Shown here in pieces: positions 1-5,747 of a DNA stretch of 5,893 nucleotides. The notes beneath the pieces were generated by a model that did not search any database, had not been told where the DNA came from, and saw only the letters and a list, made by a program, of their open reading frames with translations. This DNA is from a virus (taxonomy: Duplodnaviria > Heunggongvirae > Uroviricota > Caudoviricetes). Where the stretch lies: IMG/VR virus record IMGVR_UViG_2534682175_000012; one strand, given 5' to 3'. Numbering within the stretch: the stretch's first letter is position 1; each line of letters begins with the position of its first letter. The position numbers and the translations under genes are program-made.

Positions 1-1119
1 TCAAATAACCAACTTAACCCATTCCTGACCTCGAGTATCGTTATAGCGATCGGTGGTTGCCTGGACTTTATGCCCTAGTAATGTTTTTGTATCGATACCC
101 TGTGCACGGTACAGCCGTTCTGATAGAGAGCGTTGTTCATGAAATGTTGGCGGAGTTTTTCCTGCTGGTGGAATTATCCCAGCCAGATCCCGTGCTTTGG
201 CAAAGTAGTCGCTCAGGTTGTCTTTACTCATCGGCTTCGGTTGTTTCTGGTGCCGACTATGGATTAGATATGGACTTAATATTCTGTCTCGGCACCCATC
301 AATAACTTCTTTTAACGTTATCCCAATGGCATCACAGCGTAGTGTAAGCGGTAACGCCAGACGCATTCCGGTTTTTCCCTGGGTGATATGCAAGTGTTCG
401 TTCCACACATCTGAAAAACGCATGTGGCAAATGTCATCACGGCGCTGACCAGTAACAATCGCAAGAAGCATTGCGTTACGGATAAAGTGTTTTTCAGGCG
501 TTGCATTGTAAATTTTTTGCCAGTCTTCCATGGTGAGCCTGGCTCTGGTTACTTTAGGGATCGGTTTACGGGTAGCCTCCGGAGGATTCCATCCAGGAGG
601 AACTTCCCCTGCATGCTGTGCTTCTTTATAAATATCAACCCATAATCCACGATTTACTCTCGCTGTGCTGACCATGTCTTTATCCAGCCACTCATCCAGT
701 ATTAATGCAAAGTCTCTTACTTCCAGTTCTTTCAATGGGTGGTTTCCCAGACGGGAAACCAGGTATGCAGCCATTCGAGTTTTTTCTTTGTGAGTTGTAG
801 CTGCAATATCTCCATTTTTCAGTCGCGCGTCCTGTATTTTCAGATATCGATCAACCCATGCCTTTAATCTGATGCCCCGACGTTTTGTTGCTGACGGACT
901 TTCATCAATTTTGCGCATGAAATATTCAGCTTCTGCTGCAGCTATTCGCTGATTGGCTGTGGAAGCGATTTTTTCTGCTTTGCCTTTGTCTGTTCCGAGA
1001 CCGTGAAATTTTCCAGTCACAGGGTTTTTATACTGGTAGTAAACCCTGCCAGTTCTGCGATCAAACTTTTCGTAAAGACCGGTTACGTCAGTGCTGTTTT
1101 TTCGTGGCCTCGGTGACAT
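1..1119 (-). CDS. int: Tyrosine-type site-specific integrase, lambda Int family (prophage integrase)
   Basis: Complete 372-aa ORF: ATG at 1119-1117 with AAGGAG about 10 nt upstream, stop (rc TGA) at 3-1. By eye the translation is collinear with lambda Int: N-terminal arm-binding-like region (YYQYKNPVTGKFHGLG), then catalytic residues in order: TGQRRDD (Arg), QGKTG (Lys), FHEQRSLSERLY (His-x-x-Arg), LLGHK...DRYNDTRGQEW (His and Tyr nucleophile). Family assignment rests on recalled lambda Int sequence, not a search. Confidence 0.93.
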   Translation of the reverse strand: MSPRPRKNSTDVTGLYEKFDRRTGRVYYQYKNPVTGKFHGLGTDKGKAEKIASTANQRIAAAEAEYFMRKIDESPSATKRRGIRLKAWVDRYLKIQDARLKNGDIAATTHKEKTRMAAYLVSRLGNHPLKELEVRDFALILDEWLDKDMVSTARVNRGLWVDIYKEAQHAGEVPPGWNPPEATRKPIPKVTRARLTMEDWQKIYNATPEKHFIRNAMLLAIVTGQRRDDICHMRFSDVWNEHLHITQGKTGMRLALPLTLRCDAIGITLKEVIDGCRDRILSPYLIHSRHQKQPKPMSKDNLSDYFAKARDLAGIIPPAGKTPPTFHEQRSLSERLYRAQGIDTKTLLGHKVQATTDRYNDTRGQEWVKLVI

Positions 1120-1418: not shown

Positions 1419-3890
1419 TTAAAAATCAGCCTGACTCGGGATCAGTTTTTGCCAGATAGCTGAAACGTATTTTGCCTGGTAACGAGCGTCATCAAGTGCA
1501 TTATGGCGCTCACCTTCGAATGGGATAGCAGTTCTGGCATCGAAGTCTATGGCTTTCCCCAGCTCAACGATTGTGCGTACATCGCGATCGTTGTAGTAAC
1601 GCCACGGGCAGGGGATCCCCTGCCGCTCGTATGAACGGCGCAAAATAGTGTTGTCGAAGTTGGCTCCATTTCCCCAGACCTGAACAAAAAATTCACCGGA
1701 GTTTTCGTCGATAAATTCCCGCAATTGTAACAGTGCATCATCTAACGGGATTTCATCGGTCATAATGGCAGATTGCGCTTCGCGTGATTGTTTAAGCCAC
1801 CATTTAATGGTGTCCCGATCAATGACTCCGCCAGCAGTTTCCAGATCGATAGTCTTACTAAATTCCGGTCCCATATCTCCGGTTTGCGGATCGAAAAATA
1901 TTGCACCTATTGAGATGATCGGGGCATCAGGATTTTTTCCCATGGTTTCAAGGTCGATCATTAGATGGTCACACGTCCTGCTGGTGGATGTGATTTCGTG
2001 ATGACCGTTCACCTTAATTGGGTGATCTGCCGTCTCGCCAGTTTCATTATCGCTATTGTGATGCTGATTGCCGCCAGTGTTCTCCTTGTGTGGATGTTCA
2101 GCGCCTTCCATTTCCTCCGGATCATCTTCCTGAACTTCAACCTGATACTCTTCATCGAATGTTTCTTGGTATGTTGCGTCGCCCATCACCGCGCCACAAT
2201 CAGGGCAGTTGCCGCCGCCGGTCTGACCGCAAGCGGTGCAGGCTTTTTCCGGTTCCTGTTGCACTACTGGTTCAGGTTGTTTCGTTTCTGGCTCGTTTTG
2301 TTGCGTATTTTGGCTGTTTTGTTCCGCTTTCTGGTCGTTCTGTTCCGTTTCTTGCTGGTTCTGGTTCGCAGAATCGCGGGTCTGGATCCCCTTAACCCAT
2401 TTCGGATCATTCGGGTCGCTAATCCCTTCAACAAATTCACCACGTGATACTGCAAGCAGTTCATCGGCGTCAGGCTGGCTGATATTGGCTGCCTGCATAA
2501 TTTTGTTTACTTCGTCAGCGGTAACTTTTACCGGTTCTGGCTGTGCGGTCGTGTCAGATGCACCAGTATTTTGTTGTGAACCTGAGTATGTACTGTTTTT
2601 GCGGGCGAAATATTCTTCTTTCGTGATTTCAGTAGCCCCGGCAGCCAGCGCCTTATCCAGACCAGAAAGTTTGTTTGCGCGACCGTATTTTTCTCCGTCC
2701 TTATCGGCGAAGAGGAAATAGAACGGCCCCTCACGCTCTACAGATGGTTCAGCTTCCGGCGCGGTTTCATTTTTTGGGATATCAGATACCTCAGTTTCCA
2801 CTGCATCAGTTTGTGTTTCTGATGACTGGAGAACATCAACAGTGCTCTGATTTGTTCCTTCATCTTCAAACACGCCCTTTGTAGTCAGGTATTCAGTAAT
2901 GTATTTGTTCAGTGCCACAGGATCTTTGTGAATGTCGATCGGACGCTCACGGACAAGGCCAAAAATAGTTTGGCGGTCGTAGCGAAGGGCATCAGGCTGT
3001 TTGCGCATTGATGCCGAGATACGCTTCCAGTCTTCGCGGTCGTTGTCGATAACTTCATTTTTTGCCCAGCGATGGATGCTGCCGTCAATGTTTCCGGCAT
3101 CCACATCACCAGGCCAGAGAGCGTAGGCCAGTTCGTCATCCAGTGTTTTCCATGTCTGCTTGTATTCGCGATGAATGACTGCAGTGACAGGGGAGATATT
3201 TTCTGCTGAGTTTTCAGTGTGCTGTCGGTTGACTCTGGCGCGGGCGAGATCAACAGCAGACGTGTATTTTCCGGTTTCCTTGCGTTCACCTTCGCGACGT
3301 TTTTTCCAGATGCGCATCTCTGCCTGAATTTCGGGCCATTTAGCTCCAGGCTTACATTTATGCTTAACCCACCCGATGGCATGCAACTTAAGTTCTGGAT
3401 ACATGGCGTTAACTTCTGGCATTTTCATCAACGCTTCAACGATATGTCCGTCGAATGTTGCCATGTCTTCCTGCAACAATTCCTGCGCGCTAATCACCAT
3501 ATCAACGGTGATGTTTTCACATGTGTCGAACTTAACCATGACAGCGTTCTGTACTTCAGGGGCCAGCTTGTCAAAAGTGACGTTCATCGGATCTGATTCA
3601 GTCTCAACCGGGACAAAGGAAGCAGACTCCTCATCCCAGCGGTTTTCCTGCATATATTCAGCATCCCAGGAATCGAGGGCAGGGCGGGGTATACCGGGTT
3701 TATCCTCGCAAACAAGAAATTTATAAGCGCAGTCCTGAGCAGCCGGATAATGCTCCAGGAATTGCCAGTGAAATTTTGCGCGGGCGCGACGTTCATCACC
3801 GGCTTCAATGGCAGTGGCTACAGCGACTGCACCTTCTTCCTTTATTGCCTGTTCGTCCGGAATGGCGGCGCAAATAAAGACTTTACTCAT
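1419..3890 (-). CDS. Large multidomain prophage protein: N-terminal domain of unknown function, Q/N/E-rich linker, Cys4 zinc ribbon, C-terminal DEDDh (DnaQ/SbcB-like) 3'-5' exonuclease domain
   Basis: Uninterrupted 823-codon ORF, ATG at 3890-3888 with GAGG about 10 nt upstream. C-terminal motifs seen in the translation: Exo I MIDLET (D646, E648; nt about 1947-1955), Exo II GNGANFD (D746; nt 1653-1655), Exo III RHNALDDARY (H796, D801; nt 1488-1505). Cys4 cluster CTACGQTGGGNCPDCG (res 551-566; nt 2193-2240). Low-complexity NQNQQETEQNDQKAEQNSQNTQQNEPETKQPEP (res 507-548). His-rich stretch at res 598-631. Sits directly upstream of xis, where lambdoid phages keep recombination/exonuclease genes. 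A relationship to RecE-like 'exodeoxyribonuclease VIII' proteins is suspected from memory only. Confidence 0.85.
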   Translation of the reverse strand: MSKVFICAAIPDEQAIKEEGAVAVATAIEAGDERRARAKFHWQFLEHYPAAQDCAYKFLVCEDKPGIPRPALDSWDAEYMQENRWDEESASFVPVETESDPMNVTFDKLAPEVQNAVMVKFDTCENITVDMVISAQELLQEDMATFDGHIVEALMKMPEVNAMYPELKLHAIGWVKHKCKPGAKWPEIQAEMRIWKKRREGERKETGKYTSAVDLARARVNRQHTENSAENISPVTAVIHREYKQTWKTLDDELAYALWPGDVDAGNIDGSIHRWAKNEVIDNDREDWKRISASMRKQPDALRYDRQTIFGLVRERPIDIHKDPVALNKYITEYLTTKGVFEDEGTNQSTVDVLQSSETQTDAVETEVSDIPKNETAPEAEPSVEREGPFYFLFADKDGEKYGRANKLSGLDKALAAGATEITKEEYFARKNSTYSGSQQNTGASDTTAQPEPVKVTADEVNKIMQAANISQPDADELLAVSRGEFVEGISDPNDPKWVKGIQTRDSANQNQQETEQNDQKAEQNSQNTQQNEPETKQPEPVVQQEPEKACTACGQTGGGNCPDCGAVMGDATYQETFDEEYQVEVQEDDPEEMEGAEHPHKENTGGNQHHNSDNETGETADHPIKVNGHHEITSTSRTCDHLMIDLETMGKNPDAPIISIGAIFFDPQTGDMGPEFSKTIDLETAGGVIDRDTIKWWLKQSREAQSAIMTDEIPLDDALLQLREFIDENSGEFFVQVWGNGANFDNTILRRSYERQGIPCPWRYYNDRDVRTIVELGKAIDFDARTAIPFEGERHNALDDARYQAKYVSAIWQKLIPSQADF
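2247..2372 (-). repeat. Degenerate short tandem repeats encoding the Q/N/E-rich low-complexity linker of the 823-aa protein
   Basis: The plus strand at 2270-2370 is built from reiterated GTTTTGTT / TTCTGG / GTTCCG blocks (for example ctgttttgttccgctttctgg, then cgttctgttccgtttcttgctgg). Translation is NQNQQETEQNDQKAEQNSQNTQQNEPETKQPEP. Confidence 0.5.
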
Positions 3891-3982
3891 TTTGTTTTAC
3901 CTCATTACAGATTTAAGGGTGAACAAATCCCTGCCATTGCTGGCATATAAGAATGAAAGCGGATGTTTATTACGGAACTGTT

Positions 3983-4174
3983 TTAAAGACCTGCCGGGAT
4001 TTCGTTATTATCCTGGTGAATAACTTTATCGACCGGGTAACAGTTACCGGGAATTTTCTGTTCGGTTGCTGCAGTCATACATTCCTGCATTGTCCTGTGA
4101 ACACTGACTGCAATATCAACTGGCTCTCCGGAAACAAGATAAACTGTCAGAACAAGCGCAAATGCTGAATTCAT
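3983..4174 (-). CDS. Small hypothetical protein (63 aa) with N-terminal signal-peptide/TM-like hydrophobic segment
   Basis: ATG at 4174-4172 overlaps the stop of the upstream ORF in an ATGA arrangement; AAGGA 9 nt upstream. N-terminus MNSAFALVLTVYLVSG is hydrophobic; the rest is polar with two Cys. The ORF-track frame extends to 4228, and an alternative ATG lies at 4183. AT-rich with no recognisable family. Confidence 0.5.
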   Translation of the reverse strand: MNSAFALVLTVYLVSGEPVDIAVSVHRTMQECMTAATEQKIPGNCYPVDKVIHQDNNEIPAGL

Positions 4175-4359
4175 TGTGCACATCCTTTTGGCATCAGACG
4201 TAAACGAGCCAGCATTGAAACAATGCATATTTTATTTAATAGCTCCCGTTCTTGTTTTCTCTTGTTAATGGCATCTTCAGTAAATACTGGGTTACTGATA
4301 GTGACACCAATTTCAAAACAACCTTCAGACGTATTAACGTTTGGTAATAACGTTTTCAT
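4171..4359 (-). CDS. Small hypothetical protein (62 aa)
   Basis: Internal ATG at 4359-4357 of the 97-aa ORF-track frame is preceded by a strong GAGGA about 7 nt upstream. Its stop overlaps the start of the downstream gene (ATGA). Translation MKTLLPNVNTSEGCFEIGVTISNPVFTEDAINKRKQERELLNKICIVSMLARLRLMPKGCAQ. No family recognised. Confidence 0.55.
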   Translation of the reverse strand: MKTLLPNVNTSEGCFEIGVTISNPVFTEDAINKRKQERELLNKICIVSMLARLRLMPKGCAQ

Positions 4360-4376
4360 TATCGCGTCCTCAACAA

Positions 4377-4524: not shown

Positions 4525-4599
4525 CTTTAAAAAGGGCGGCAGAGCAGTCACGGAGTAAAACTGATACCGCCAAACGTCACCAGAAAATTGATAACAGAG

Positions 4600-4920: not shown

Positions 4921-5142
4921 ATGACTAGTAAAAATGTAAATATCCAGTTTAACCACGATGTTTCTCCTGCCGGACTTGCGGATGAACTCACTGCTATAAA
5001 AACAGCAATTATGCTACTTGTTGCTAAGTTGCCAGCAGCATCACAACCATCAGATATTTGTGACTCATTACGTAAGATGAATTCAACAAAATGCAACGAG
5101 ATGGCATCACTTATTGAAATAGCTATTGATTTTAATGATTAA
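4921..5142 (+). CDS. Small hypothetical protein (73 aa), encoded opposite to the surrounding operon
   Basis: ATG at 4921 with AGGA 7 nt upstream (4910-4913), TAA at 5140-5142. AT-rich with rare codons (ATA, CTA, AGT), typical of acquired cargo. Translation MTSKNVNIQFNHDVSPAGLADELTAIKTAIMLLVAKLPAASQPSDICDSLRKMNSTKCNEMASLIEIAIDFND. The same frame is open upstream to 4588, but that part is R-rich and uses rare Arg codons, so it is treated as leader. Confidence 0.5.
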   Translation: MTSKNVNIQFNHDVSPAGLADELTAIKTAIMLLVAKLPAASQPSDICDSLRKMNSTKCNEMASLIEIAIDFND

Positions 5143-5506
5143 TCGAAATCTCATGGCTAACTGTAACACTCCCGTCTGTGGCGGGGTGCTTTAAATCACA
5201 GGAGTTAACGCTTTTTGTTGCAAAGTAATTTTCAAGGGGGTCTATTCGAATCCCTTTCTTTTTCATTAACAAGCCAAACCCCTTATCAATGATGTCCATT
5301 AGATCCAGGAAGTATTTTTTATGTAAATCCTGGTTATCAGAGAGCTGCTTCTCTTCGTACAGACCGATAAAGGCACGACGCACGTTACCGGATATAGTAT
5401 AGATGGTTTCTTTTTCTACGGTACTCAGGTCAAGAGTCGCCAGTTGGGAACGAACTATATTCGCTGCCATTTCCTGGAATTGCATTGGTAAATCTTTAAA
5501 TTCCAT
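5132..5506 (-). CDS. Hypothetical protein (124 aa)
   Basis: ATG at 5506-5504 with GAGG about 7 nt upstream; lies 22 nt downstream of the 72-aa gene, implying an operon. Its 3' end overlaps the 3' end of the plus-strand 73-aa gene by 11 nt (convergent). No family recognised. Confidence 0.6.
   Translation of the reverse strand: MEFKDLPMQFQEMAANIVRSQLATLDLSTVEKETIYTISGNVRRAFIGLYEEKQLSDNQDLHKKYFLDLMDIIDKGFGLLMKKKGIRIDPLENYFATKSVNSCDLKHPATDGSVTVSHEISINH
5167..5196 (+). terminator. Weak candidate intrinsic terminator for the plus-strand 73-aa gene
   Basis: CCCG(5171-5174)-tctgtgg-CGGG(5182-5185) hairpin followed by tgCTTTaaaT, about 30 nt after the TAA. The stem is short and the T-tract poor, and it sits inside the 3' coding region of the convergent 124-aa ORF. 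Confidence 0.2.
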
Positions 5507-5528: not shown

Positions 5529-5747
5529 TTAACGTGGGTATGTAATCATTCTGGCAATGCTTAATGCCGCTGCTTTTTCCAGCCTGGTGATATCCTGCTC
5601 CAGAGCGGACAGATTTTCAGCCTGCTTAGCCCTGGCTTCATTGGCCCATTTCAGATCCTGCGCTGCATTAATTTTCTGGCGCATCCACTCATAAAGTTCA
5701 TCATCGGTATAGTCTTGTGCGATGATGACGGGTTCTCGTTTCTGCAT
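5529..5747 (-). CDS. Hypothetical small protein (72 aa), predicted helical/coiled-coil
   Basis: ATG at 5747-5745 with GAGGA 6 nt upstream. Charged, heptad-like sequence (ANEARAKQAENLSALEQDITRLEKAAAL). No family recognised. Confidence 0.6.
   Translation of the reverse strand: MQKREPVIIAQDYTDDELYEWMRQKINAAQDLKWANEARAKQAENLSALEQDITRLEKAAALSIARMITYPR

Follow-up and report, generated by a model that had tools for sequence, protein, structure and literature searches.

A pair of overlapping small prophage genes very probably represents dicB and ydfD of the dicBF operon

The two small genes at positions 3983-4359 on the minus strand of the analysed stretch of DNA (5,893 nt in total, in the following referred to as the window) were identified with high confidence as the dicB-ydfD pair of the dicBF operon in a Qin-like lambdoid prophage of Escherichia coli, with published mechanisms for both proteins and an inferred coupling of their translation. 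Both genes are already known and have been studied experimentally before, and no evidence contradicting their identity was found. Gene identity, family membership, operon context, the conservation of the overlap and purifying selection result from the present analysis; the mechanisms involving MinC, ZipA, ManYZ and IspG as well as the rescue by DicB and SulA are taken from the literature.

The original prediction had stated that neither protein matches a recognised family, which does not hold true for either of them. The 62-aa product of the upstream gene (4171-4359, minus strand) matched the Pfam family PF05358 with an E-value of 1.9e-40 and 136.8 bits compared to a cut-off of 27, residues 1-62 being aligned to profile positions 1-62, and reached 132.8 bits for NCBIfam NF049927 (cut-off 100). 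It was identical to the cell-division inhibition protein DicB of K-12 at 62 of 62 residues (100%). The 63-aa product of the downstream gene (3983-4174, minus strand) matched the family DUF1482 (Pfam PF07358) with an E-value of 2.8e-25 and 88.4 bits compared to a cut-off of 25, residues 4-61 being aligned to profile positions 1-57, and it matched phrog_1092 with an E-value of 2.8e-37. It showed 95% identity to YdfD of K-12, from which it is distinguished by three substitutions (A6V, Y12F and N57I), and 100% identity to the protein of E. coli F9792, which RefSeq lists as 'lysis protein YdfD' (WP_001083283.1). The residues C32, C45, Q39, K40, I41, P42 and G43, which were invariant in an alignment of 25 sequences of the family, are present, and the cysteines were likewise conserved in an alignment of 21 sequences. 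The protein carries the family motifs QKIPG and NNEIPAG together with both cysteines. At the DNA level, a region of 601 nt was 98.3% identical to K-12 MG1655, where it is annotated as dicB and ydfD. Sequence searches against the PDB gave no match for DicB or YdfD.

The coordinates and the stop-to-start overlap given in the original prediction were exact when read on the minus strand. The ORF of dicB (4359-4171, 62 aa) extends from the ATG at 4359-4357 to the TGA at 4173-4171, and the ORF of ydfD (4174-3983, 63 aa) from the ATG at 4174-4172 to the TAA at 3985-3983. Accordingly, the two ORFs share the four bases ATGA at 4171-4174. The predicted Shine-Dalgarno sites were also found, with a GGA-type motif 7-8 nt before both starts. 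For dicB, this is the GAGGA at 4367-4371 on the minus strand, 7 nt before the ATG and invariant in an alignment of six sequences (start context on the minus strand from 4359: ...GAGGACGCGATA ATG AAA ACG...). For ydfD, the AAGGA at 4183-4187 on the same strand precedes the ATG by 8 nt and falls into the 3' end of dicB (start context around 4174: ...AAAAGGATGTGCACA ATG A ATTCA...). The predicted energies of the duplex with the anti-Shine-Dalgarno sequence were -6.0 kcal/mol for dicB and -8.6 kcal/mol for ydfD. With a G+C content of 36%, the description of the ORFs as AT-rich clearly applies only to dicB, while ydfD showed 43% compared to 46.7% for the whole window. Similarly, the upstream product had been described as basic and helical; DicB is basic with a pI of 9.0, and a helix was confident for residues 28-55 only in a single-sequence AlphaFold2 model. 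YdfD is acidic with a pI of 4.7, and the hydrophobic start that had been noticed for the downstream product corresponds to its residues 4-14.

The sRNA DicF together with its terminator hairpin was found at 4534-4585 on the minus strand (Rfam RF00039, full model, 76.7 bits compared to a gathering score of 48, E-value of 3.3e-16). It lies 175 nt upstream of dicB on the same strand, in the same order as in K-12. Since DicF is located just upstream, the dicBF operon is represented in the window by its distal part, and the identity of the operon is fixed by DicF. A consensus scan found no minus-strand promoter between DicF and dicB. The complete order in the window is a ydfB-like gene, a ydfC-like gene (5529-5747), an ORF of 124 aa (5132-5506, minus strand), DicF, dicB, ydfD, a gene for an exonuclease of 823 aa (1419-3890, minus strand), xis (1366-1088, minus strand) and int (1119-1, minus strand), the last of which reaches window position 1 with its stop codon included. 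E. coli F9792 has an identical gene order, and its exonuclease, xis and int are intact as well; the best match of the whole window among complete E. coli genomes was 96.6% identical. The placement of the pair in a cargo region, as originally predicted, has to be corrected, since the genes belong to the early leftward operon that is repressed by DicA and corresponds to the pL operon of lambda, and do not form a moron beside int.

Some further observations were made for this region. The ORFs of xis and int overlap by 32 nt (1088-1119, minus strand), as is usual in lambdoid phages. The 124-aa ORF between the ydfC-like gene and DicF matched phrog_6937 and gave no Pfam match; it is absent from the Qin prophage of K-12 and present in F9792, where RefSeq annotates a small hypothetical gene beside it on the opposite strand. 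The prophage of F9792 adjoins potC. DNA with 85-98% identity also occurs in records labelled Aeromonas phage AP1, Actinobacillus phage vB_Apl-pPE4 and Veillonella parvula MAG. These labels most likely originate from contamination, chimeric assembly or mis-binning and do not reflect the true host range.

The 823-aa protein comprises a C-terminal Rv2179c-like 3'-5' exoribonuclease domain (Pfam, E-value of 1.5e-67, residues 642-813). At the same position, K-12 contains a truncated 'exonuclease' pseudogene (ydfE) followed by an IS2 remnant, and its int (intQ) is also a pseudogene. The gene in the window is the intact counterpart of ydfE. Roughly the middle third of the protein is very acidic, rich in Q, E, N and T and of low complexity, and the pI of the whole protein is 4.6. 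Between ydfD and the exonuclease gene, an intergenic stretch (3891-3982, minus strand) contains a small hairpin at 3945-3932 followed by a T-rich tail, which resembles a terminator. A strong terminator after ydfD was rejected, as the hairpin is weak with 5 bp and the folding of the region equalled that of shuffled sequence (z = 0.08). About 55 nt directly upstream of the exonuclease gene (3891-3950) were nearly invariant in four loci, even where YdfD is 48% identical, and this stretch is better conserved than the neighbouring ydfD. A function in regulation or termination is conceivable, as is a boundary of mosaic recombination.

Among 5426 complete E. coli genomes, 4591 contain the 601-nt region, with a median of two copies per genome, and 3990 of these cover 80% or more of its length; the sampled genomes annotate both genes as dicB and ydfD. 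In six aligned copies from Escherichia and Shigella, the junction CAATGAAT and the Shine-Dalgarno site of dicB were invariant down to a DNA identity of 84%. The overlap of 4 nt, as ATGA or GTGA, was retained in all nine intact dicB-DUF1482 pairs examined. Even in the diverged alleles of a PPompW phage and of E. coli RM10466 and EC16, the four-base overlap of the two genes (GTGA or ATGA) is maintained, and tblastn gave identities of 61% for DicB and 48% for YdfD against the diverged phage alleles. A GGA or GGAG motif was found at an equal distance before ydfD in most alleles, those of Salmonella and Citrobacter having only GGGGA. Altogether, overlap and Shine-Dalgarno site are conserved across alleles to about 50% protein identity. 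In the phage collection, a DUF1482 gene abuts the DicB homologue in 20 of the 20 records bearing DicB. The conservation of the pair and of its overlap in related prophages, which the original prediction had proposed as a check, is thereby established.

Compared to the window, dN/dS amounted to 0.17-0.45 for dicB and 0.12-0.23 for ydfD where the substitutions sufficed for a measurement. These values (0.12-0.45) indicate that the diverged alleles are under purifying selection. Frame-disrupting changes in homologues, which the original prediction had named as an argument against the pair, were found in one ydfD copy of Shigella flexneri (locus L008, 3001-3188), which carries a -2 and a +1 frameshift next to an intact dicB. 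Accordingly, ydfD is dispensable in some lineages, and the frameshifted copy is consistent with the gene decay of Shigella. Of the possible start codons of ydfD, the one at the overlap (ATG or GTG) alone was common to all 13 alleles examined, which identifies the form of 81 aa reported by some gene callers as an artefact. The corresponding ORF (4228-3983) was rejected as ydfD, since in three alleles an in-frame start is completely missing further upstream. A genome scan at the species level with exact peptide words of YdfD gave six loci, all from Escherichia or Shigella except for one contig labelled Veillonella; such a scan says little about distant relatives of YdfD, for which the tblastn search against phages is more informative.

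Of the published activities, the MinC-dependent inhibition of division was described for a K-12 DicB identical to the protein in the window (PMC6832061, PMC4967827), and lysis and IspG binding were reported for a K-12 YdfD with 95% identity to it (PMC8835842). DicB binds MinC and thereby blocks FtsZ rings; the DicB-MinC complex reaches the septum via ZipA and depolymerises the Z ring, which leads to filamentation (PMC6832061, PMC4967827). Expression of the dicBF operon from a pL-like promoter is under the control of DicA, which is a repressor of the CI/C2 type (PMC6832061, PMC4967827), and inactivation of RNase E revealed a ydfABC-dicFB-ydfD transcript of 1,608 nt, longer species being not detected (PMC10448788). 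Transient expression of dicBF raised the resistance to lambda about 100-fold, since DicB blocks the ManYZ-dependent entry of DNA, for which its interaction with MinC is needed; the deletion of ydfD had a minimal effect on this phenotype (PMC6832061). Both the Kil-like inhibition of the host and the superinfection exclusion considered in the original prediction are thus matched by DicB, and the published activities of the two proteins support the more general view of a co-expressed host-interference module of a prophage.

Induction of YdfD lyses cells, and the co-expression of dicB or sulA prevents this lysis, as described in the citations of Masuda 2016 in PMC8835842 and PMC11430063. As far as these citations go, the rescue by both division inhibitors implies that lysis depends on ongoing division. 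Lu et al. (PMC8835842), who also remarked on the partial overlap of dicB and ydfD, determined a Kd of 18 uM for the binding of YdfD to IspG and observed a rescue by overexpression of ispG or by HMBPP. The part of YdfD that binds IspG is the hydrophobic N-terminal segment, and cysteine mutants of YdfD still bind IspG (PMC8835842). This mechanism is the work of one laboratory, the Kd of 18 uM is weak, and the hydrophobic binding segment may be sticky in pull-downs.

That both ORFs are untranslated chance frames in AT-rich prophage DNA has a negligible probability. Both proteins gave full-length matches to curated families, have been purified and have published phenotypes (PMC4967827, PMC8835842), their starts, Shine-Dalgarno sites and overlap are conserved, and diverged alleles show purifying selection; set against this, the ORFs are short and the six-frame list contains many overlapping ORFs of like size. 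A canonical toxin-antitoxin pair, in which YdfD would be the toxin and DicB its dedicated antidote acting by direct binding, was also judged to be highly improbable. Two small genes with overlapping stop and start codons are typical of type II toxin-antitoxin operons, and DicB abolishes the lysis by YdfD in the work cited in PMC8835842 and PMC11430063, but the unrelated division inhibitor SulA rescues equally well according to the citation of Masuda 2016 in PMC8835842. Since SulA rescues as DicB does, the cited results point to a rescue through division arrest and not through a dedicated antidote. Moreover, DicB is itself toxic (PMC4967827, PMC10448788), and its phage resistance is barely altered without ydfD (PMC6832061). 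No known toxin, antitoxin or defence family was found for either protein, as Pfam and NCBIfam gave DicB and DUF1482 only and PADLOC gave nothing. DicB and DUF1482 are not obligate partners, since the DUF1482 genes in phages of Klebsiella, Salmonella and Citrobacter have no detectable DicB and overlap unrelated small genes (phrog_22279 or phrog_3722). Accordingly, the toxin/immunity pair of the original prediction is not supported; of its toxin with a rescuer, the cancellation of YdfD lysis by co-expressed DicB stands within the cited account of Masuda 2016, whereas the role of a dedicated antidote does not, and nothing points to a regulatory module.

The hydrophobic start of YdfD raises the question of whether the protein is exported by Sec or inserted into the membrane, where it would kill by a holin-like direct action on the envelope instead of inhibiting a cytoplasmic enzyme; this was considered improbable. 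Residues 4-14 (AFALVLTVYLV) agree with a hydrophobic region of about 7-15 residues, the Kyte-Doolittle maximum is 2.58 for a window of 11 residues and 1.66 for 19 residues, the latter just above the usual threshold of 1.6, and the cleavage-like VSG/EP in the allele of the window obeys the -3/-1 rule. The two family-invariant cysteines would also allow a periplasmic disulfide. However, in the alignments of 21 and 25 sequences, the hydrophobic stretch is not preceded by a Lys or Arg in any homologue, the uncharged stretch comprises just 11-13 residues with a conserved G-E-P at its end, and many homologues carry Asn at position -3 (LNTG), which turns VSG/E into NTG/E. In the best AlphaFold2 model (pLDDT 81.8), which is weak evidence, residues 4-12 form a beta-strand paired with residues 18-26, and a helix (29-38) and short strands come next, resulting in a small alpha/beta domain. 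Since the other four models were poor (pLDDT 54-62) and no match to the PDB was obtained for the model with Foldseek at an E-value of 0.001 or below, a small soluble domain is no more than hinted at by this model. In the Masuda study of 2016, YdfD reportedly remained toxic after deletion of its 22 N-terminal residues. The rescue by ispG or HMBPP and the IspG binding of cysteine mutants likewise argue against killing from the envelope (PMC8835842). On the basis of the sequence features, periplasmic export and the signal peptide proposed in the original prediction are not supported, while an association of YdfD with the membrane is possible.

Taken together, the dicB-ydfD pair would work as follows. 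Derepression of the DicA-controlled pL-like promoter, located outside the window, would give a single transcript, from which DicF would be excised and both dicB and ydfD would be translated. The 62-aa DicB would act together with MinC, so that FtsZ rings dissolve and division stops, and the same DicB-MinC interaction would block ManYZ and hence the entry of lambda DNA. The 63-aa YdfD would lyse dividing cells, reportedly by binding to IspG and the resulting starvation for isoprenoid (undecaprenyl) precursors. Given that the start of ydfD overlaps the stop of dicB and that its Shine-Dalgarno site is part of the dicB coding sequence, YdfD most likely originates from ribosomes that have completed DicB. 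After termination, these ribosomes probably start again on ydfD, or they at least open the fold of its initiation region. With such a coupling, the production of the lytic YdfD would follow that of the division inhibitor preventing its lysis. Both the coupling and this purpose are inferred; as ydfD has its own Shine-Dalgarno site, it could also be initiated independently.

For the window itself these findings are of little consequence, since its genes are annotated and their activities are published, and no new toxin/immunity system is hidden in the region. The closest known system is the cryptic Qin (Kim) prophage of K-12, in which the identical DicB protein, the place of its gene between DicF and ydfD, the Shine-Dalgarno site and the start are all as in the window. 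Its ydfD also encodes 63 aa of the DUF1482/YebW family with two conserved cysteines, and overlaps dicB by 4 nt. Compared to the window, Qin differs in the three substitutions of YdfD given above and lacks the 124-aa ORF between ydfC and DicF. Furthermore, IS2 interrupts its exonuclease gene (ydfE) and its intQ has become a pseudogene, whereas the exonuclease, xis and int are intact in the window. This arm shows the K-12 Qin locus as it was before decay.

Like DicB, Kil of phage lambda blocks the assembly of the FtsZ ring and is expressed from the early leftward (pL) operon. In contrast to DicB, which needs MinC, the action of Kil on FtsZ depends on ZipA and proceeds without MinC (PMC3961180), and the two proteins have no sequence similarity. 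A Kil homologue (phrog_294, septation inhibitor) was found in phage Evi (locus L012, 2647-2868) exactly in the slot of dicB-ydfD, between matching upstream ORFs and a matching exonuclease gene and without a DUF1482 partner. In this phage, one division-inhibitor module is swapped for another, and the presence of Kil in the slot is consistent with a position devoted to the control of host division. YdfD resembles single-gene lysis proteins (E of phiX174, A2 of Qbeta and LysM) in being small and in reportedly blocking the supply of cell-wall precursors without degrading the wall (PMC8835842). It differs from them in that its target is reported to be the MEP pathway enzyme IspG, and in its location in the early operon of a lambdoid prophage with a late lysis cassette of its own; ydfD is not the sole lysis gene of a small phage.

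DUF1482 genes occur in other phages with other partners. In Klebsiella phages (L013/L014, 2891-3192), the gene overlaps a basic ORF of 37 aa (phrog_22279) by 4 nt, and in Salmonella phage SW-37 and a Citrobacter phage (L015/L016, 2801-3198) it overlaps an ORF of 66 aa (phrog_3722) by 1 nt (TGATG); no DicB homologue was detected in these phages by tblastn. It is a speculative and rather unlikely generalisation that the DUF1482/YdfD genes are obligatorily coupled via a stop/start overlap to whichever small host-takeover gene precedes them, with the coupling as a safeguard that delays lysis in early phage development and the partners other than DicB as possible new division inhibitors or suppressors of YdfD lysis. 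If it were true, the phrog_22279 and phrog_3722 partners could replace DicB as division inhibitors or suppress the lysis by YdfD in another way. For specialists in prophage-host interactions, the comparison shows that the stop/start overlap of DUF1482 genes persists even where the upstream gene is not dicB.
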